Assembly (NCBI GenBank): GCA_958296125.1
Contig: OY282444.1
Coordinates: 2,697,623-2,761,622, forward strand
DNA length: 64,000 nt
Origin: an uncultured Poribacteria bacterium
GTDB lineage: Bacteria > Poribacteria > WGA-4E > PCPOR2b
Direction of reading: 5' to 3'
In this document: positions 470-44,663 of the stretch, piece by piece
How the letters are laid out: each line of letters begins with the position of its first letter
Position numbering within the stretch: the first letter of the stretch is position 1
Notes under the pieces: generated by a model
Told to the model about the DNA's origin: nothing
What the model saw: only the letters and a program-made list of their open reading frames with translations
Databases searched by the model: none
Made by a program: the position numbers and the translations under genes

Positions 470-1483
470 CTAGCAAACCCCAGGGGTTGTAAGGTCTGCA
501 ATGATTCGGATTGTGCCAGAAAACGCTGCCCCCGGTTCCAGAACGATGACCCCGGCATCAATGCCTCTTGCTTCGAGATTAATCGCATCCGTTGGACAAG
601 TGTACGGTTCAAAGCAGATTGAGGGGCGGCCTGGCGGGGTGTAGACGACCAACTCTCGAAACTGCGCGTCGGATTCTAAGATCATACGGATGCCCCCGTC
701 TTGGTCGCCAATGACACAACGACTCACGTCCTCTGACAAGAGGACACCCGTCAGGACATCGTCAAACTGCCGTCCCGCGAGCGATTTTCCGAATCGGAAG
801 TCAGCATCTTCTTCCAAATCGGAGACCTCACCTGTCGGCAGGAGTTCCTCCAGTTCCCAACGCTTTGAAGCCGGCACAGTGATTAAGCATCTTTCAGCCG
901 AAGATTTCGATGACAACGGCACACGAAAATAGGGGTGGATGCCCAATCCCATCGGCATGTTACTATCGCCGGTATTCCTGATATCGATGCCCATCGTCAA
1001 GGTGGTTTCTATGAGCGTATAGGTGATCCGAATCTCAAACGGCAGCGGATACTGACGCATAATCTCTGGAAATTCCCGCGAATCTAGGCGACAAACGATT
1101 AAAGCCCCGTCCTCTGTATCCACGCTTTCAACCTGATACGGTTGATTTAGGGTGAGCCCATGAATGGAATTGGGGGTTCCCGGCGCTTTGTCGAATGTGT
1201 ATTCCTTTCCCTCAAAGGTGAATTTCCCCTCGCGGATTCGGTTCGGAAATGGGAATAGAATTGGATTCCCGTACCTTGTTGGCTCGTCTTTCAGCGTTTC
1301 CAGATCGGGAGGTGGGTCAATTAGGTCTATCCATTCACCGTTGACGGGGAGCCCAAAACTGTAGCAGTTATTTCCAAGGCTCGGCGCAATCCTCGCCTCT
1401 GCCTTTGTCGTCTCATCTCGCAAGACATAAATCTCAATACCATCAACCTCAATCCGATTGACGACATAACGCAATTCGCTCAT
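470..1483 (-). CDS. Aldose 1-epimerase (galactose mutarotase-like) family protein
   Basis: 337-aa ORF; mutarotase-like beta-sandwich signature with conserved His motifs (HGL, GIHPYF). Confidence 0.75.
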   Translation of the reverse strand: MSELRYVVNRIEVDGIEIYVLRDETTKAEARIAPSLGNNCYSFGLPVNGEWIDLIDPPPDLETLKDEPTRYGNPILFPFPNRIREGKFTFEGKEYTFDKAPGTPNSIHGLTLNQPYQVESVDTEDGALIVCRLDSREFPEIMRQYPLPFEIRITYTLIETTLTMGIDIRNTGDSNMPMGLGIHPYFRVPLSSKSSAERCLITVPASKRWELEELLPTGEVSDLEEDADFRFGKSLAGRQFDDVLTGVLLSEDVSRCVIGDQDGGIRMILESDAQFRELVVYTPPGRPSICFEPYTCPTDAINLEARGIDAGVIVLEPGAAFSGTIRIIADLTTPGVC

Positions 1484-1807
1484 TTGTTCCTCCGTGACGT
1501 AATGGTCTCATTCGTTGCTCCTTTGCTCCGTCCTATTTTTCTGCCAATCCTTTTGTCTCCTTCACTTGAGGGGGGTATCTATCATGAGTGCAAGTTGGCA
1601 CCTATCGCCCCGTCCCGATGCTGCGATCGGGATTCAAAGCAACTGGGTTTTGGATGGCAACTTAGATTATCATTATACCAAAATGTCGTGATTGTCTCAA
1701 GAAATAAAGGTGAGCTTGTGTGAAAATCCTTGATGTTAGGGCAACTTTTTGGTAAACTTATAGGTGCCACTATTGTAGGATCCACTATAATTCAGTGAAT
1801 CACGCTA

Positions 1808-2143
1808 ATGCGGAGGTTGACAATGCAATGGATGTCTCGCTGGCTCAAACCCGGCGAACCTGCTGATATTAATGCGTTGAAAAATCAGTTACAATCGGAA
1901 GGTTTTGGTGCGTATCAGTGGAAAGGAACACCCGGTGCTGCCTATCTGGACTACATCCACACACAGGATGAAGTGGTCTGCGTGTTGTCGGGCAGAGCCG
2001 ATGTGTCAGTAGAAGATGATCAGGGACAGATTCAAACCGGGGATCGCGTGGATGTCCCGGCAAATACCTATCACTCCATCACGGTGACGAGCGAGGAACC
2101 GCTGGTTGTGCTAACTGGTATGCGTTATCGAAGTGAAACGTGA
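1808..2143 (+). CDS. Cupin domain protein
   Basis: 111-aa ORF with cupin beta-barrel motif (VCVLSGRADV...TYHSI); 11-nt overlap with the downstream gene suggests an operon. Confidence 0.6.
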   Translation: MRRLTMQWMSRWLKPGEPADINALKNQLQSEGFGAYQWKGTPGAAYLDYIHTQDEVVCVLSGRADVSVEDDQGQIQTGDRVDVPANTYHSITVTSEEPLVVLTGMRYRSET

Positions 2144-2168: not shown

Positions 2169-4886
2169 GTGGCAATTCGACATTTCAAGGCGAGCATTTC
2201 GCTGATTACGATCCTGTTGTTGTTGAGCAGCTGTTCAATCTTCAACCGAAGCCAACCCTCTGAAAAAGTGATTGTCGATCCGCTGATCGAACGAAATAAA
2301 GAGTGGCGTGAGCAGGTCGAGACGGGAAATTTGGCACTCCAGGATGGAGACTTGGAAGGTGCCCTCGAAGCTTATCAAGCCGCCCTAGCGATTAAGCCGC
2401 ATTCGAGTCAGATCCAATTCCAAATCGCCAAGCTCTACTTCCAACAGGAGGAATACGAAAAAGCGAGGGATGCCTTCGTCGCTACAGTAACACTTGCCCC
2501 CAAGAATATGGATGCGCGTAACGCGCTTGGCCACATTTACGAGAAACTGAGTAACTATGAGGCTGCAACGCAGGTTTACGAGGATACTTTGGTGGTTGAT
2601 CCGCATAACCTGTATGCCCTCAACCACCTCGGATTGGCTTACAAGCAACTCGGCCGGCTCGACGACGCTGAACAGGTTTTACGGCAGGCGATGGGGGTTG
2701 ATCCAAAAGCTGCACGGCCTGACAGCAAAAATCTGCATAACTATCTTGGTTTGATTTACTGGGAAAAAGGCGACATCGGTGAAGCTATCGCCGAATTTAG
2801 AGAGTCGATCCGGCTTTTCCCAAAAGATATATGGCCTCGCCAAAGCCTCGCTTCTCTCTACGAAGATCATGGGCGTTACTACGAAGCACAACTCCAGTAC
2901 CATAAAATTTTGGAGATAGATCCGCAAAATCTCCTCGCTCCAACGCGCCTCCAAGCACTTGCACAGTTAGATCGATCTGCCCCGATACCCGTTCAACTTG
3001 CGCCTGTAGATCTAATCGACATTGACATTGAGGGAGTCATCGCCACCGCCCCTGATGCCGCGGATTATCCTAATGCTGATGCAATCATCCTGCTCAACCA
3101 GTTTAATCACGAAGTCACCCCAGTGGGGAAATCCCGCTATACCTCCCATCAGGTGGTCAAGATTTTGACGGAGAGGGGGGTGCAGAACTACGATGACATC
3201 GCCATCCCACATACCCCCACCGCACAACAGATAACAGTCAATGTGGCGCGGACTATCACCCCCGATGGTTCTGTTGTTGAACCACCGGAGGAGGCGTTCA
3301 ACGATGTCACACCACCGGGGCTGCTCTCCTACAACCTCTATTCCGATGCGATGTGGCGGGTCATCTCAATGCCTGCTCTCAAACCGGGGGTGTGCATTGA
3401 GTATCAAGTCACGCTTGAAGATGCAGGGGCAGAGTCGGTTGGGAGCACCTCATGGTTTTGGGGAGGCTTCAATTTTCAATCCAGAGATCCGATTCTGCAA
3501 TCCGCTTATGCCTTGCGTGTACCCAAAGGGACGAACTTCAAGTGGAAGGCGATCCATTGCCAACTCAATCCCCAAGTACTGCACGAGGGGGAAGCCAGCA
3601 CCTATCTCTGGACCTATGGCGAAACACCGGCGCTCAAGGAGGAATACAATATGCCAGCGACGAACGATATTGTTCCACGCTTGAGTTATTCATCTGTGGA
3701 ATCTTGGGACGCTGTTTACAATTGGTACCGAGACATCGCAAAGGACCGATACACCGTTGATCAAGCGATTGAGGAAATGGTTGAGGGACTCACCGCAGAC
3801 CGTCTCACGGAGGATGACAAAATTCGAGAGATATACCATTTCGTTGCATCACAGATTCGCTATGTAGGGATTGAGCTCGGTCAAGGCGCGTATCAGCCTA
3901 CGCCAGCCGATCAGGTGCTCAGTGTCCGATACGGCGACTGCAAGGACAAAACTACCTTGATGATCACGATGCTCAATCTGCTGGGTATTGAGGCGTTTCC
4001 GGTGATGCTAAATCCCACGCCATATCAGCGCGTCGATCCGGAACTTCCGTCGCTCGGACAGTTTAGCCACCTGATTGCTGCGATTCCGCGTGATGATGGC
4101 GACTATATTTGGCTTGATCCGACTGCTGATACCTGCAGCTACGGCGATCTCCCAGCGCGGAATCAAGGACGCAAAGGGTTCGTCATCCGAAGCGATCGGG
4201 GCGAGTTTGTTGATATTCCAATTTCTATGCCTGAAGCCAATCGGTTAATCATTGACACCCAGATCGCACTGACGGAAAATGGGACGGTTCAAGGAACCAT
4301 GCAGGTTGACACCCGTGGACAGTACAATCTTAAGGCACGGTTGGAGTACAAGCAGGTATCGCCGAGTGCGTGGAAGGATACCTTCGCCGTTGGACTTGGG
4401 ATACAATTTCCCGGTGTCCGGATTGATGCGGTGCGGATTTCCGACTTGGCGGACCTCAACGTACCGGTTCAGCTAAACGTTGCTTTTACCGTCAAGAATT
4501 ATGCCGAACCGATTGGTAACCGCCTGGTGTTTCCGCTGCCAAACGATGAATTTTCGGACTACGCGGAGATTTTTGCAGCCGTTGAACGTCAGCACCCGCT
4601 TGATCTGAGTTACCCGATGCGGATGAAGAAAACGATCCGGATTGCCCTGCCGGAGGGGTGGAGGGCGACGTTCCCGAAGGAGGTTCGTTTAGAAAATCGC
4701 TTTGCCACCATAGAGCGACAGTACAAACTTGAAGGAAATCAGCTCCATTACGAGCTCAATTTTGCTATCAAGGAGCGGATCATACCGCCCGAAGATTATC
4801 TCGCAGCGAAACGTTTTTTCAATATGCTAATACGAGAGGATCGGACGCAACTCATCTTGGAGAAGCACGGCAAACCTAAAGCATAA
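2169..4886 (+). CDS. TPR-repeat / transglutaminase-like (DUF3857/DUF3858-type) lipoprotein
   Basis: Long ORF. N-terminal TPR repeats (LYFQQEEYEKARDAF, LGHIYEKLSNYEAA...). Transglutaminase-like core Cys in YGDCKDKTTLMITMLNLLGIEA. Start placed at GTG 2169 after AAGGAG, giving lipoprotein signal MAIRHFKASISLITILLLLSSC. Confidence 0.7.
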   Translation: MAIRHFKASISLITILLLLSSCSIFNRSQPSEKVIVDPLIERNKEWREQVETGNLALQDGDLEGALEAYQAALAIKPHSSQIQFQIAKLYFQQEEYEKARDAFVATVTLAPKNMDARNALGHIYEKLSNYEAATQVYEDTLVVDPHNLYALNHLGLAYKQLGRLDDAEQVLRQAMGVDPKAARPDSKNLHNYLGLIYWEKGDIGEAIAEFRESIRLFPKDIWPRQSLASLYEDHGRYYEAQLQYHKILEIDPQNLLAPTRLQALAQLDRSAPIPVQLAPVDLIDIDIEGVIATAPDAADYPNADAIILLNQFNHEVTPVGKSRYTSHQVVKILTERGVQNYDDIAIPHTPTAQQITVNVARTITPDGSVVEPPEEAFNDVTPPGLLSYNLYSDAMWRVISMPALKPGVCIEYQVTLEDAGAESVGSTSWFWGGFNFQSRDPILQSAYALRVPKGTNFKWKAIHCQLNPQVLHEGEASTYLWTYGETPALKEEYNMPATNDIVPRLSYSSVESWDAVYNWYRDIAKDRYTVDQAIEEMVEGLTADRLTEDDKIREIYHFVASQIRYVGIELGQGAYQPTPADQVLSVRYGDCKDKTTLMITMLNLLGIEAFPVMLNPTPYQRVDPELPSLGQFSHLIAAIPRDDGDYIWLDPTADTCSYGDLPARNQGRKGFVIRSDRGEFVDIPISMPEANRLIIDTQIALTENGTVQGTMQVDTRGQYNLKARLEYKQVSPSAWKDTFAVGLGIQFPGVRIDAVRISDLADLNVPVQLNVAFTVKNYAEPIGNRLVFPLPNDEFSDYAEIFAAVERQHPLDLSYPMRMKKTIRIALPEGWRATFPKEVRLENRFATIERQYKLEGNQLHYELNFAIKERIIPPEDYLAAKRFFNMLIREDRTQLILEKHGKPKA

Positions 4887-8857: not shown

Positions 8858-9054
8858 TTGATAGTCCTTTCTAATTATCTGAATTGTCTGCCGTAACTTA
8901 GCAACATTGAATGGAAAAAATTATACCACAACTGCAGAAAAGTAACAACCGAAAGACCTGATGGTAAGGCTATTTAGTTTTCGGTTTTTTGACCAATTTT
9001 GGCGGAACGGGAGGCGATCTATCGGGGAGCCCAGGGAATGCCCCTCCTCGAATC

Positions 9055-9135
9055 CCCCTGCCTGTGCTACCCTCCTTAATTCCCTCGCCTGCGCTACCCC
9101 TCTTAATTCCCTCGCCTGCGCTACCCCCCTTAATC
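9055..9135. repeat. Tandem repeat, 3 x 27 bp (unit about CCCTCGCCTGCGCTACCCCTCTTAATT)
   Basis: Periodicity of 27 read directly: units start at 9055, 9082, 9109. Followed by hairpin CCCCCCGC-AA-GCGGGGGG (9135..9152). Confidence 0.85.
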
Positions 9136-9190
9136 CCCCCGCAAGCGGGGGGAGGGGGGCCACATCGGAGGCGGGTCAGGCTGCCCCGCC

Positions 9191-9208
9191 CCTGGTCTCG
9201 GAACGGAC
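9191..9208 (+). repeat. Dispersed 18-bp repeat copy (CCTGGTCTCGGAACGGAC)
   Basis: Exact core match, intergenic, preceded by the GCTGCCCCGC module also seen at the 56533 locus. Confidence 0.7.
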
Positions 9209-9242
9209 TGAAGAATTAAATGACCCTACCTGATGGCTCCAG

Positions 9243-40571: not shown

Positions 40572-41492
40572 TCACACTTCCCGCTTTGTCACTTTTAGCA
40601 AGGTCATCGTCACTAGCAGCAACGGCAGAATCACGAGCGCAGAACCCCACAGGGGGATCTGCACACCGATGAGACAAGGGAAAAACGTGATGGCACCCAC
40701 CATTGAACCTTTCAGGGCGCGGTAGCCGTTTTTCTCAGTCGGATTCAGGTAAAGGGGCAGACGGGTAATACTCGTCGCAAGCAACGCAAGGATAACCCAT
40801 AAGGTGTAGTGCCAACTGGCCCCTTCAAGCCAATGTGGCAACATGGCAACAATGAAGGACAGCATGGTTGATACAGCACCGCAGACAAGGGCTGGCTTGA
40901 TTCCTAGCTGCAAGGGAGTGGTGATAATACCGAGTTTTTCATCCCGTTCGAGATCTTTGAAGGTCGTTGTAATGTGTGTCCCGCAATCGTAGAGCGTCGT
41001 AGCGGCAAACGCATACCAGACCAAGCGTGGCACCCCTCCACTTACAGCGAGTGCCCCGAACACGTTGAGCAGACCGATGCCAAGCGGAAGACTGATGCTT
41101 CCCAATATTCCGCGTTCCTTAAAGAAGGCGTTATATAAATGGGAAATCATCACGAGGGAGATTACCAGAAGCCCCGCTTTGATGTGGAGTGTGAATCCCA
41201 AGATGACGCAGATGATGTAGGTGCTGCTTGCGGTGATCAGTACCTGCCGAGGCGTGAGTCGATGGGACGGGAGCGGACGGTCCGGATTCACAACGGCATC
41301 CTGCTCGCGGTGGAAGTAGTCATTCTTCATCATCCCCGCGAAGTAGCCAAGCAGTGCGATAAACAATGTCAGCCCAACCCGCCAATTCCACTTTCCCTCT
41401 GAAGCAATCAGTGCACCGGGCAGCGTCGCGACAATCGGAATGGCAAAGAGAGGGTAGCGGATTAAGTCAAGATAAGCTTTTAATGTGTTCAT
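40572..41492 (-). CDS. UbiA-family prenyltransferase (integral membrane)
   Basis: Multi-TM protein with Asp-rich motif NDYFHREQDAVVNPDRPL. Confidence 0.75.
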   Translation of the reverse strand: MNTLKAYLDLIRYPLFAIPIVATLPGALIASEGKWNWRVGLTLFIALLGYFAGMMKNDYFHREQDAVVNPDRPLPSHRLTPRQVLITASSTYIICVILGFTLHIKAGLLVISLVMISHLYNAFFKERGILGSISLPLGIGLLNVFGALAVSGGVPRLVWYAFAATTLYDCGTHITTTFKDLERDEKLGIITTPLQLGIKPALVCGAVSTMLSFIVAMLPHWLEGASWHYTLWVILALLATSITRLPLYLNPTEKNGYRALKGSMVGAITFFPCLIGVQIPLWGSALVILPLLLVTMTLLKVTKREV

Positions 41493-41497
41493 GGTGA

Positions 41498-41692
41498 TTA
41501 ACTTTCAAGTAGGAAAAGTTGCTTGGGCGTGGTGGCAATCTGTTGCAGTATTGGATCGTCAGGTAACGGCACTCGTGCAAGCTCTTTGGGTTCAATCTTG
41601 TTAAGTCCACCCCCATAAGTTCGCCCTTCATAAAGCAGATATTCATCCTTAGTCTGCTTCAGCAAATCGAATAACTGAGCAAGGAAGTCCAC
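41498..41692 (-). pseudogene. C-terminal remnant of a DNA methyltransferase-like gene (split by IS)
   Basis: 64-aa fragment (…YEGRTYGGGLNKIEPKELARVPLPD…) resembles C-termini of Eco57I/N6-adenine MTase family proteins. The upstream part of the same frame family lies at 43092..43541, beyond the TnpB element. Confidence 0.35.
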
Positions 41693-41737
41693 GTTGTTTT
41701 TACAGATAGTGGCTTTAGCCCGTAAAGCCCAAGTATT

Positions 41738-41755
41738 GTCCGTGCCGAGACCAGG
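41738..41755 (-). repeat. Dispersed 18-bp repeat copy (reverse orientation)
   Basis: GTCCGTGCCGAGACCAGG is the reverse complement of CCTGGTCTCGGCACGGAC. Confidence 0.7.
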
Positions 41756-41834
41756 TATACTTGGGATATAAGTTTCGCTTTAGCGTTTTTGCTTGATACG
41801 GTTGTCAAAATATGTTACAATTCTTTTGTCTTTC

Positions 41835-41875
41835 GTGGGAGAGTCTTACCCCTATCACACGATAGGGTCTCCCAC
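41835..41875 (+). other. Imperfect subterminal hairpin (putative IS200/IS605 left-end structure)
   Basis: GTGGGAGA...TCTCCCAC inverted repeat with inner CCTAT/ATAGG pairing, 40 bp upstream of the TnpB start. Confidence 0.4.
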
Positions 41876-41947
41876 ACCCTGTAAGACGGACATGAAAGAC
41901 AGAAAGACACCCCCATGAAAACCTACAAGTTCAAGATGTATAGCCAT

Positions 41948-41966
41948 CCCTGGTCTCGGAACGGAC
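41948..41966 (+). repeat. Dispersed 18-bp repeat copy inside tnpB
   Basis: CCCTGGTCTCGGAACGGAC; translated as PWSRNGH in the tnpB frame. Confidence 0.7.
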
Positions 41967-42129
41967 ACGGAAACGGGGAGTTGCACAAAAACATAGACGG
42001 TCACGCGCATGTATGGAATCATTGCGTTGCCCTTCAGCGTCGCTACTATGCTATCTATGGCAAATATATCGGCAAGTTTCGATTGATGAAACACCTCTCT
42101 AAACTCAAGAAACTCTCTCGTTTTGCCCA

Positions 42130-42147
42130 CCTGGTCTCGGAACGGAC
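42130..42147 (+). repeat. Dispersed 18-bp repeat copy inside tnpB
   Basis: CCTGGTCTCGGAACGGAC; translated as LVSERT, a different codon phase from the 41948 copy. Confidence 0.7.
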
Positions 42148-42482
42148 TTGGAATCAGTTGCCAAGCCAAGCGATTCAGGATGTAGCCGCTCGCATTGATA
42201 AAGGCTACAAAAAGATGTTTGAAGATCGTGCCGCGGGCAAAAAGTGTGGCAGACCCCGTTTCAAGCCCCGTCGTAAATATAAGTCGTTCACATTGGTAAA
42301 AGCGGGCTGGAAACTTCTACCCAACAACCGAATTAAAATCGGGAAACGGGTCTACCGCTATTTCAAGTCCCGTGAGATACAAGGCACTCCCAAGCGGTGC
42401 ACCGTGAAACGGGATGCCGAGGGTGATGTTTATATCTGTGTGCTAACTGACTATGTAGAACCTGACCAAAACCGAGCTATGC

Positions 42483-42500
42483 CTGGTCTCGGCACGGACA
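42483..42500 (+). repeat. Dispersed 18-bp repeat copy inside tnpB
   Basis: CCTGGTCTCGGCACGGAC; translated as PGLGTD, a third codon phase. Confidence 0.7.
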
Positions 42501-42649
42501 CGGGTCATATCGCAGGCTTCGATTTTGGTCTCAAACGGTATCTCACAGGGTCAAACGGACATGATATAGAATCCCCTCTATTTTTCAAACGCAGTCTTAA
42601 CGCTATCAAACGGTTCAACCGCAAACACAGCACCAAACGTACCTGTCCT

Positions 42650-42667
42650 GTCCGTGCCGAGACCAGG
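42650..42667 (-). repeat. Dispersed 18-bp repeat copy inside tnpB (reverse orientation)
   Basis: GTCCGTGCCGAGACCAGG; translated as VRAETR. Confidence 0.7.
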
Positions 42668-43091
42668 CGGAACGGGAAAGGTTCAAAGAATCGGGGACGC
42701 GCCCGATTGGATTTAGCCCGTAAACACCATAGAATCGCTAACCAGCGTGAGGACTTCCACTGGAAACTTGCACACCAACTCACCGATAGATATGATGAGA
42801 TACGGCCCCGATAAGATCGGGATTCAGAGCAACTTGAGGACTTGAACCTCAGAGGCATGAAAGCCCTTTGGGGACGCAAGGTTAGCGATTTAGGCTTTGC
42901 CGACTTTGTTAGGAAGTTAGTGTATATCGCTTCTCAAAAAGGCGTTAAAATCACGTTCATTGATAAGTGGTATCCTTCCAGTAAGACTTGCTCGGTTTGC
43001 GGGGCAGTGAATGAAGCGTTAAATCTGCGAGATAGAACATGGCAATGCCCAAGTTGCCACACACAGTTAGATAGAGATCGCAACGCCGCGA

Positions 43092-43541
43092 TTAATATCT
43101 ACAGGGTGGGGGCATCCACCCCTGGTCTCGGCACGGACCTTTCAGGAGAGGTCGTAAGTCCCGCTTCGGTTGGCTAACCTCGTCGATTGAACAATTCCAC
43201 TCCCAAAGGAATAGGTGAGAATCCCAATCCTTTAGGTTTGGGAGTATGTCAAAAGCTTGCTGCACCTCTTGATTCGGATAAAGCATCAGATAGACATTTG
43301 GGCTAGTTGCCTGCGAATAGTTTCGGAAGAACCGCAGGCCAGAATCCCCTGACTTGGTGCGAGACATATAACTGCATAAAATAGGAGCCGCCGGTCGATT
43401 TTCCTGTTTGAACCATGGCCGTCGATGGCGAGTTATGTACCGGTCCGCAAACCCTTGCGATTTCCCCCAAGCGAGGTAAACCTTTAGTGACGGGTAGGCT
43501 TCGACTGCGCTCTCCTCCAAATCACAATCTAACAGTACCAA
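43092..43541 (-). pseudogene. Remnant of a DNA N6-adenine methyltransferase-like gene (target-recognition/C-terminal region), 5'-truncated and split by the TnpB element
   Basis: …PILCSYMSRTKSGDSGLRFFRNYSQATSPNVYLMLYP… resembles the post-catalytic region of Eco57I/TaqI-like MTases. No catalytic N-terminal domain upstream (an ADH gene follows). 3' end runs into the IS right end. Confidence 0.4.
43121..43138 (+). repeat. Dispersed 18-bp repeat copy inside tnpB 3' end
   Basis: CCTGGTCTCGGCACGGAC; translated as PGLGTD. Confidence 0.7.
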
Positions 43542-43643
43542 AGATGGATGAATGAATGGGAAACCGTCGTAGGCAGGGTCTGATGTATATTCCTATGTTC
43601 TATTCTTGAAAATGAGCCGATCCGTCCAACACGCTTTTATGTG

Positions 43644-44663
43644 TTACCCACCCACCAGAACACTTTTCACACCGCGTTGCTGCCGAGCGTTTTCAAACCC
43701 TTCAATGGCTCCTTGGATCGGAAATCGATCCGTTAACAACGGCTTGAGGTTAATCCCGTCGTCAATAAGCATTTGACGGGATTCGTTCAAACTCCAGCGC
43801 GAGAATGCCCACGATGCCATCAGCTTGTGCCCCATATAATGAAAATGCTCAAGGTTAATCCGCAGTTCCTGCCCGCCCGGTGCCAGTCCAAAGAAATTTA
43901 CGCAACCGCCTCGCCGCACAACCTTGAAGCCGAGATCAATCGCGCGCTGATCATTGACTGTCGCAGAGATGACGGTATCCACGCCGCCGTTAGTCTTCTC
44001 GATCAGCGTTTCCACCTGCTCCGCTGTAATATCAAATGTGGTGTCTGCGCCAACTTCATCTGCTGCCCTCCGCCGATGTGCGAGTGGCTCAAGAACGGAT
44101 GTCTGCAAGCCCGCTTTTCTCGCCAGTTGGGCAAACATCAAGCCAATGGGACCCGCGCCTAGGATAGCTACACTTTTATCGAAGATTGTTTCACGCATCG
44201 CATTGATACAGCAGCCCAACGGCTCCAGAAAAATCAGTTCTTCTGGCGGAATCGTATCTGGTACGGATATGAGTTTGCCTGTGTCAATTCCGTGTTTCGG
44301 CATCCGGAGGTATTGGGCATATCCGCCATCAATGTCGTGTCCAATTCCCTCAATCTGTGAGCAATATTTGTCCATGTCCGCCCGGCAGTAATCACAGTTT
44401 CCGCAGGAGAGCATCGGATTTGCCGTTACTTTCTCACCGACTTTCACATCGGGGTGGCGGCTTTCAACGACGACCCCGGCGAGTTCATGCCCCATCACGA
44501 CGGGCGGTGAGTAGTCCGTGATATCCCCGTTGAGTGCTGCCAAGTCAGATGTACAGATACCGCATAGGTCGACTTTAATCAGGACATCTCCCGAATTGAG
44601 GGCCGGGACCGGCTTATCCTGTACGCTTAATTTTCCAGTTTCTTCAAAGACAGCAGCTTTCAT
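43644..44663 (-). CDS. Zinc-dependent alcohol dehydrogenase (MDR superfamily; threonine/sorbitol dehydrogenase-like)
   Basis: GHELAGVV catalytic-Zn motif, structural-Zn Cys cluster (CGNCDYC), Rossmann GAGPIGL. Confidence 0.85.
   Translation of the reverse strand: MKAAVFEETGKLSVQDKPVPALNSGDVLIKVDLCGICTSDLAALNGDITDYSPPVVMGHELAGVVVESRHPDVKVGEKVTANPMLSCGNCDYCRADMDKYCSQIEGIGHDIDGGYAQYLRMPKHGIDTGKLISVPDTIPPEELIFLEPLGCCINAMRETIFDKSVAILGAGPIGLMFAQLARKAGLQTSVLEPLAHRRRAADEVGADTTFDITAEQVETLIEKTNGGVDTVISATVNDQRAIDLGFKVVRRGGCVNFFGLAPGGQELRINLEHFHYMGHKLMASWAFSRWSLNESRQMLIDDGINLKPLLTDRFPIQGAIEGFENARQQRGVKSVLVGG

Follow-up and report, generated by a model that had tools for sequence, protein, structure and literature searches.

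What kind of element lies at 41704-43252 of a 64,000-nt stretch of an uncultured Poribacteria bacterium, a sponge symbiont (contig OY282444.1, positions 2,697,623 to 2,761,622; hereafter the window), and how did its only gene come to hold a series of short extra segments, one of them with a stop codon? A preliminary description, made from the letters of the sequence, had seen there a degenerate insertion sequence (IS) of the IS200/IS605 family that consists of tnpB without tnpA, carries foreign 18-bp insertions and splits the methyltransferase gene of a decayed restriction-modification (RM) locus. Our explanation, to which we give a probability of roughly 85%, is that an IS1341-type element lies in the methylase of a decayed XamI-type RM system and was disabled by the insertion of mini-repeats of 18 and 27 nt that are dispersed across Poribacteria. 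Apart from these insertions the locus is ordinary: the element is a TnpB-only IS1341-type representative of the IS200/IS605 family, which is known and very large and to which it adds one member; nor is the RM remnant out of the ordinary.

The element and its target

The features of the element and of its host gene are the following.

41700..41703, plus strand: TTAC target tetranucleotide adjoining the left end on its 5' side; predicted target-adjacent motif (TAM), a role assigned from the IS200/IS605 paradigm
41704..43252, plus strand: TnpB-only IS200/IS605 (IS1341-type) element, 1549 bp, delimited by alignment to the uninserted L097 and L099 and by the empty site in L108
41728..41765, plus strand: subterminal left-end hairpin (CCCAAGTA/TACTTGGG), its TTTA loop split by an 18-mer; the uninserted loop is seen in L099
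41835..41875, plus strand: two-part hairpin in the 5' untranslated region (UTR) of tnpB, with compensatory changes in both stems among the window copy, L099, L070, L057 and L097
41915..43177, plus strand: tnpB pseudogene, 1263 bp, with one internal stop (TAA, 42812-42814); the RuvC D/E/D and zinc-finger motifs are kept
43079..43252, plus strand: structured 3' region of at least 174 nt, predicted omegaRNA scaffold, overlapping the 3' end of tnpB and reaching the right end
43222..43243, plus strand: right-end hairpin (CCCAATCC-TTTA-GGTTTGGG)
43253..43272, plus strand: predicted omegaRNA guide (AAGCTTGCTGCACCTCTTGA), directly 3' of the right end, placed by the TnpB/omegaRNA paradigm
43253..43576, minus strand: upstream part of the methyltransferase C-terminal-domain remnant, 89% identical in nucleotides to L108 5041-5364
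41498..41703, minus strand: downstream part of the methyltransferase remnant, ending in the stop codon at 41498-41500
43577..43580, no strand: deletion junction, at which L108 2970-5040 (2.07 kb) is missing from the window

The exact ends, which the preliminary description had left to an alignment with relatives, were fixed by comparing the window copy as DNA with L097 and L099 (uninserted IS copies from another Poribacteria genome) and with L108, a syntenic contig of ~88% identity. The right end reads ...GGGAGTATGTCAA, with 43252 as its last base, while the left end, 41704, lies directly 3' of TTAC. In L108 the site is empty and uninterrupted (TTTTTAC followed by AAACTTGCTGCACC), and comparison of TTTTTAC-AAACTTGC there with TTTTTAC-IS-AAGCTTGC in the window revealed no target duplication and a 1-nt ambiguity (A) in the position of the junction. 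When 41704-43252 was excised in silico, a single continuous open reading frame (ORF) of the host was restored on the minus strand. Among other copies of the IS, the left end was preceded by TTAC in L099 and L057 and by TTAT in L070 and L097. Left end (211 nt), tnpB and tail (75 nt) take up the whole 1549 bp (~1396 bp once the mini-repeats are subtracted), leaving room neither for tnpA, of which none was found inside the element, nor for any other gene.

The 1263-bp frame was indeed recognizable as TnpB, both from the motifs of its translation (IAGFDFGLK, LEDLNLRGM, CSVCG..CPSCH and DRDRNAA) and from its Pfam matches (OrfB_IS605 at 1.3e-8 before the stop codon and Cas12f1-like_TNB at 4.5e-22 after it). 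This TnpB family counts 5169 database relatives, with a usual length of 375-378 aa. The N-part of the window tnpB is 100% identical to a database protein of 292 aa (P0004), and three intact paralogs, taken to be from the same genome (P0001, 390 aa; P0002, 411 aa; P0003, 387 aa), are 85-90% identical to the window TnpB. An AlphaFold model of the family was of low confidence (predicted local distance difference test score of 62). The in-frame TAA (42812-42814) lies within CCCCGATAAGATCGGG (42806-42821), the 16-nt palindrome in which it had first been noticed; this palindrome proved to be part of a discrete insertion of 27 nt (42806-42832). Since the TAA, which belongs to inserted and not to native sequence, is the sole frame-breaking lesion of tnpB, the word degenerate overstated the coding damage.

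At the ends, the stem of the left hairpin (41728-41765) covaries over five copies, with each copy's left hairpin resembling its own right-end hairpin; in L057, L070, L097 and L099 the two covary in parallel, as would be expected of hairpins bound by a transposase. The preliminary description had taken the hairpin at 41835..41875 for the one at the left end of the element. That hairpin exists and covaries, but as a structure of the 5' UTR, ~40 nt upstream of the tnpB start and 130 nt inside the element, which is conserved in five Poribacteria IS copies; it might control translation or belong to the left end.

An omegaRNA had been expected at 43178..43260. A structured and covarying RNA was found at the right end, although its extent is larger (at least 43079-43252). 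RNAalifold predicted several helices with 7 compensatory pairs from five copies, and a covariance model built from these five sequences (R1) scored 147.7 bits at 43079-43252. A metagenome scan with the single TnpB protein found no relative; an alignment-based scan yielded 80 TnpB loci of ~50% identity, none of them from Poribacteria, which were used for the RNA model. R1 matched the 3' end of nearly all of these loci; by source, it matched 85 of 85, the five that it was built from included. In the R1 alignment 87.9% of the cells were paired, double changes occurred in 32 of the 40 pairs, and the covariation score (0.398) was well above those of shuffled (0.122) and slid controls (at most 0.088). 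The region thus fits an omegaRNA scaffold with its guide from 43253 onward, and in the empty site of L108 sequence matching the predicted guide comes right after TTAC. By analogy with known TnpB systems, this RNA would be transcribed, bound by TnpB and used to guide cleavage next to the TAM. Domains, insertion at TTAC without duplication, matching hairpins and a covarying 3' RNA together bear out the assignment to the TnpB-only IS200/IS605 elements.

The host gene had been described as two fragments of one methyltransferase-like gene lacking its catalytic N-terminus, in a decayed RM locus. Joining the fragments gives one ORF whose best homolog covers 96% of the query at 87% identity; 46 of 53 homologs carry the Pfam domain M_Eco57I_C (PF22837), and some are named adenine-specific DNA methyltransferase. 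The coordinates needed correction: the methylase sequence starts at 43253, whereas the ORF at 43092..43541 extends by chance over 161 nt of the IS right end. Moreover, the gene order of L108 (LOG-like, an unannotated gene, alcohol dehydrogenase, RE_XamI, methylase, UbiA) has lost in the window a 2.07-kb stretch that holds the RE_XamI gene and the catalytic N-part of the methylase, with the flanking genes kept and about the last 180 codons of the methylase surviving, split by the IS. RE_XamI lies directly upstream of the methylase in L108 and also upstream of it in L109, which has an Eco57I catalytic domain. By tblastn, both the Eco57I-domain protein of L109 and its XamI fragment were found in L108 (the former frameshifted) and nowhere in the 64-kb window, so the partner endonuclease that had been proposed as a search target is absent from the window and present in L108 and L109. 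These comparisons support a decayed XamI-type RM system, in which no RM function remains because the endonuclease and the catalytic domain are absent.

In L109 (1697-3859) the homologous methylase is split as well, by a 720-aa gene with DruA and Tn5-type DDE transposase domains that separates the Eco57I catalytic part from the M_Eco57I_C part; the methylase was therefore struck by mobile DNA more than once.

Mini-repeats in the element and across Poribacteria

The window TnpB has six extra segments relative to the consensus of its family, and the element as a whole holds eight insertions: six exact copies of the 18-mer CCTGGTCTCGGNACGGAC, one degenerate and split 18-mer, and one 27-mer. They are arranged as follows.

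41738..41755, minus strand: 18-mer (C-type), in the TTTA loop of the left-end hairpin
41949..41966, plus strand: 18-mer read as (H)PWSRN(G), common to P0002 only
42130..42147, plus strand: 18-mer read as LVSERT, unique to the window copy
42482..42499, plus strand: 18-mer read as PGLGTD, common to P0001 only
42641..42676, plus strand: 36-nt composite read as TCPVRAETRRNG, in which a degenerate forward 18-mer (ACCTGTCCT^CGGAACGGG; halves at 42641-42649 and 42668-42676) is split by an exact reversed 18-mer (42650-42667); common to P0001
42806..42832, plus strand: 27-nt mini-repeat (CCCCGATAAGATCGGGATTCAGAGCAA) that carries the TAA, just before the RuvC-II strand LEDLN
43121..43138, plus strand: 18-mer read as PGLGTD, common to P0003; inside the conserved 3' RNA just 3' of the helix GGGTGG..CCACCC, adding 18 nt between helices of the predicted omegaRNA in the window copy

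The 18-mer occurs exactly seven times in the window, against 0.19 expected, and none of 100 shuffles reached seven; six of the seven copies lie in the element and the other at 9191-9208, while copies with one to three mismatches are lacking in the window. Since the flanks of the copies are unrelated, the unit is truly 18 nt long. In DNA alignment with L097 and L099, the segments of 18, 36 and 27 nt appeared as exact gaps in the uninserted relatives, with no duplicated flank. The preliminary description had counted five 18-bp insertions in tnpB: five exact and foreign copies do lie in the ORF, to which a sixth in the left end and a seventh, degenerate and split, have to be added. Their foreign nature was confirmed in two ways: more than 100 members of the family, 375-378 aa long, lack them, and in many Poribacteria genomes they stand in unrelated contexts. 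By inspection, the 18-mer is free of stop codons in all six frames; being also a multiple of three, it can persist in coding sequence.

The three intact paralogs share these insertions in part: P0002 has the one at 41949 plus a private 18-mer at another site, P0001 has the one at 42482 plus the 36-nt composite, and P0003 has the one at 43121 plus a private 18-mer at another site, while the more than 100 other listed family members (375-378 aa) have none. Altogether, the copies of this IS family in the source genome display nine distinct 18-mer sites, seven of them in sense orientation and with all three frames used. An intact paralog with the same insertions had been thought apt to mark the segments as native; as P0001-P0003 share subsets only, we read them as insertions within the IS lineage of this genome. 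The sharing among the window copy and its paralogs is not tree-like, and the window TnpB is nearer P0002 in residues 1-60 and nearer P0001 in residues 61-120, a weak signal that hints at recombination between IS copies.

An extra segment of its own was seen in L097, where ~22 nt in the omegaRNA region (3650-3675; TGAACGGATGGGACTCTCGGAAC) contain pieces of the 18-mer (TCTCGGAAC and GAACGGA) in rearranged order and may represent a copy that has decayed or been permuted.

When 185,579 species genomes were scanned, the 18-mer turned up mostly in Candidatus Poribacteria, at many loci per genome; other phyla had single matches, consistent with the ~70 chance matches estimated for a collection of this size, and in viral contigs only two matches were found, taken as chance level. 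Several repeat families of Poribacteria include it at a fixed position. In family A of the miniature inverted-repeat transposable elements (MITEs; ~140 nt, terminal repeats AGGACTTACGC), ten copies are filled with the 18-mer and four are empty exactly there, and copies both with and without the 27-mer exist. In a hairpin family (GAAACCGAGTTTT..AAAACTCGGTTTC), the 18-mer occupies the centre of the loop at nine sites, while ~20 similar sites are without it. At three loci that encode long dockerin-bearing proteins, it is also read in frame within the C-terminal domain, of FlgD_ig/T9SS type. The 27-mer family has the consensus CCCCGATAAATCGGGATTCAAAGCAAC and 27 matches at up to two mismatches, 25 in the fetched loci and two in the window.

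The choice of site is biased by sequence: 20 of the 26 non-redundant 18-mer sites have C four bases upstream (-4; binomial 4e-8, or 4e-6 corrected). A circularly permuted unit as the source of this C was rejected because the boundaries of the site at 42482 are unambiguous. Likewise rejected was a restriction of the 18-mer to TnpB elements, for this TnpB is found in only 2 of 96 18-mer loci and in neither does the repeat lie inside the element; with the repeat outside the element in both, the heavy load is particular to the source genome's IS copies.

Some details of these families are of separate note. MITE family B (~340 nt; terminal repeats GTTGACATTT/AAATGTCAAC; L005, L007, L052, L057, L071 and L072, all from OZ244950.1) has the 18-mer in every copy; in two copies a 23-nt segment (GGTGCTGCATCCCGATTTATCGG) is inserted as well, a hint of a third mini-repeat family. 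The GAAACCGAGTTTT(loop)AAAACTCGGTTTC palindrome is found downstream of genes in many Poribacteria genomes (e.g., L003 4102-4140 and L010 3131-3170) and once, without the 18-mer, at ~124-160 of the window; it looks like a shared terminator or REP-like (repetitive extragenic palindromic) unit. In the dockerin-bearing proteins (L055 ~1309, L075 ~3774 and L082 ~6030), the 18-mer is read as VRSETR/VRTETR in the last beta-hairpin region of the FlgD_ig/T9SS-like domain; the ORFs have 1410 codons in L082 and 1427 in L075, where an extra partial copy lies alongside, and the ORF of L055 runs off the end of the locus (L055 and L075 are from named Poribacteria genomes). In L086 (~2839), an exact match encodes KRVRTETxI of a HemA-like glutamyl-tRNA reductase, identified by eye from its motif, and is probably a native chance sequence and not an insertion.

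Origin of the mini-repeats and fate of the element

The course of events that we propose is this. The element would have moved as single-stranded DNA, by analogy with its family and with a Y1 transposase acting in trans, to a site 3' of TTAC within the M_Eco57I_C domain of an XamI-type RM methyltransferase, a system that would then have decayed via the 2.07-kb deletion. The 27-mer before the RuvC-II strand would have supplied the TAA, and the 18-mers in the left-end loop and in the omegaRNA would have helped to render the copy dead or nearly so, with mobility and guided cleavage presumably lost. The 18-mer and the 27-mer would represent two small dispersed repeat families across Poribacteria that insert as exact units without target-site duplication, the 18-mer even within another 18-mer, and that, carried along in MITEs and IS copies, may have become still more widespread.

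As to what moved them, a trans-acting activity with a weak target rule and no target duplication would suffice. The 27-mer, a hairpin with a 12-nt tail, resembles a REP or a solitary end of an IS200/IS605 element, for which reason we would favour a single-strand activity of HUH type; with low confidence, the enzyme might be of the single-strand HUH/Y1 type or another non-duplicating recombinase. Going one step further, we raise tentatively, and with more doubt than belief, that both units are actively mobile, among the smallest known, and moved precisely and without duplication next to C at -4 by a dedicated enzyme, of HUH/Y1 type or templated, which may favour mobile DNA.

Several observations weigh against the explanation or parts of it: i) a scan of 41000-44000 against Rfam by E-value gave no matching family; ii) the joined methylase ORF itself matches M_Eco57I_C at E = 0.058 (13.2 bits versus a cut-off of 27), the joined ORF and the separate fragments gave nothing above threshold in Pfam or NCBIfam, and the joined ORF gave nothing against sequences of the PDB, so the assignment to M_Eco57I_C is made because the homologs carry PF22837; iii) this IS family carries no 18-mers in other Poribacteria genomes; iv) the insertions shared with the paralogs, which were compared as proteins, may have been inherited in common, or may stem from gene conversion or from recurrent insertion at one site; v) 18-mer sites in coding sequence fall in hairpin loops in 2 of 7 cases against a background of 0.21, i.e., without preference, which weakens a simple hairpin-targeting model; and vi) no enzyme for the mini-repeats was identified, with no search made for a Y1 transposase outside the element. 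General targeting of hairpin loops by the 18-mer is thus unsupported at coding sites; only the left-end hairpin and the terminator-like hairpin family conform to it.

The alternative that survives best holds that the mini-repeats are not self-mobile and were multiplied only by hitch-hiking and gene conversion within larger repeats after a few chance insertions. Many copies do share a single position within MITE family A, MITE family B or the hairpin family, and the window TnpB is partly mosaic with a sharing among paralogs that is not tree-like. On the other hand, the non-redundant flanking contexts number at least 26, a single genome has nine distinct sites within one IS family, and an 18-mer is nested in an 18-mer; filled and empty sites differ by exactly one unit; and the C at -4 is significant, a bias that points to a recurrent, sequence-aware insertion process. 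We therefore regard hitch-hiking as the sole means of spread as unlikely, if a serious contender.

A selected binding or uptake motif that arose by point mutation, like the DNA uptake sequences and uptake signal sequences (DUS/USS) or HIP1, would account for the perfect identity of the 18-mer across species and for the lack of copies with one to three mismatches in the window; the 18-mer also contains CCTGG and GGTCTC, which are known enzyme recognition sites. Every testable copy, however, is an 18-nt indel relative to homologous sequence and not a set of substitutions, which contradicts an origin by substitution and makes this reading improbable; a binding function may exist on top of insertion.

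Still less credible is that the segments of 18 and 27 nt are native, lineage-specific parts of a TnpB subfamily. P0001, P0002 and P0003 share some of them at identical positions, but each segment is missing from most paralogs and all are missing from the more than 100 close members of 375-378 aa; the same 18-mer and 27-mer stand in non-coding contexts, MITEs and other genes of many Poribacteria genomes; and the copies include one in the left-end loop, beyond the ORF, and one that interrupts another. Artefacts of long-read metagenome assembly or sequencing can practically be dismissed, for although L108 is a long-read contig of 3x coverage and many genomes with the 18-mer were judged long-read from their accession style, the same contexts recur in short-read-style records (k141_ contigs of JAJEAL/JAJECO, and PYIZ01) and in chromosome-level assemblies, the 18-mer is present in more than ten different genomes, the reading frames are kept and annotated database proteins contain the insertions.

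Relation to known systems and significance

With the TnpB-only, IS1341-type (also called PATE-like) elements of the IS200/IS605 family, for which IS608 and ISDra2 are paradigms, the window element shares a single tnpB with RuvC and zinc finger; like IS608 it has a TTAC target and lies 3' of the tetranucleotide without duplication, and similar hairpins at both ends and a structured RNA at the right end agree with the family paradigm. It differs in lacking tnpA and in the mini-insertions in its left loop, ORF and omegaRNA, one of which stops the ORF. Its predicted RNA has the position, the covarying helices and the 3'-terminal hairpin beside the presumed guide of a TnpB omegaRNA, but has 18 extra nt between helices and, as said, no Rfam match. 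The methylase remnant is related to XamI/Eco57I-like type II RM systems through homologs with M_Eco57I_C and through RE_XamI upstream in L108, and differs from them in having neither endonuclease nor catalytic domain.

For the mini-repeats, the only comparable case known to us is that of the small dispersed repeats (SDRs) of cyanobacteria, whose mechanism, to our knowledge, is not established. Elhai and colleagues reportedly described in 2008 SDR1-8, of 21-27 nt, in Nostoc and related cyanobacteria. Like the mini-repeats of Poribacteria, these SDRs are reportedly very short, nested and found inside MITEs, with filled and empty sites that differ by the exact unit; the phylum is another and the sequences are unrelated, so that the likeness is one of phenomenon only. 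Moreover the 18-mer is shorter than any SDR, forms no convincing hairpin, and shows the bias to C at -4 and a heavy load in one IS family. The literature yielded no article that connects Poribacteria to TnpB or to these mini-repeats. The 27-mer, with its short hairpin and ~12-nt tail, dispersed and mostly intergenic, is similar to the REP/REPIN sequences moved by RAYTs (REP-associated tyrosine transposases, of the Y1, IS200-like kind); it has no GTAG/CGTC tag, REPIN doublets were not seen (a RAYT gene was not searched for), and the 18-mer is not palindromic. Rickettsia palindromic elements insert in frame into open genes as the 18-mer does, but are ~100-150 bp long and palindromic, against 18 and 27 nt in Poribacteria.

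The IS and the RM locus are routine finds, useful mainly as a worked example: for a large TnpB family of Poribacteria they give the ends exactly, together with an empty site, a predicted TAM and guide, and an omegaRNA that covaries. Of wider interest are the mini-repeats: Poribacteria genomes harbour two or more families of ultra-short repeats with the behaviour of insertions, and one decaying IS family records nine separate 18-mer events to the base. With filled and empty sites, a measurable flank bias and many complete genomes at hand in a second phylum, unrelated to the first, the question of mechanism becomes accessible to comparative genomics. For annotation, the mini-repeats add segments of 6 or 9 residues, also to TnpB nucleases of biotechnological interest, that are mistakable for lineage-specific features. 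Should active mobility prove true, the mini-repeats may by preference hit other mobile DNA, such as MITEs and the single-strand intermediates of IS200/IS605 elements, and would then be parasites of parasites that disable transposons; their whole-codon size, together with the stop-free 18-mer, would let them add peptides to host proteins.

Two intergenic stretches of the window hold mini-repeats outside the element. The second 27-mer of the window (1614-1643), between the ORFs 470..1483 (minus strand) and 1808..2143 (plus strand), has a longer loop (CCCGATGCTGCGATCGGGATTCAAAGCAAC). The 18-mer at 9191-9208 belongs to a mosaic at 8990-9210, which also comprises a GGCGATCTATCGGGG unit, about three tandem units of ~31 nt (CCCTCCTTAATTCCCTCGCCTGCGCTACC) and a CCCCCCGCAAGCGGGGGG palindrome.

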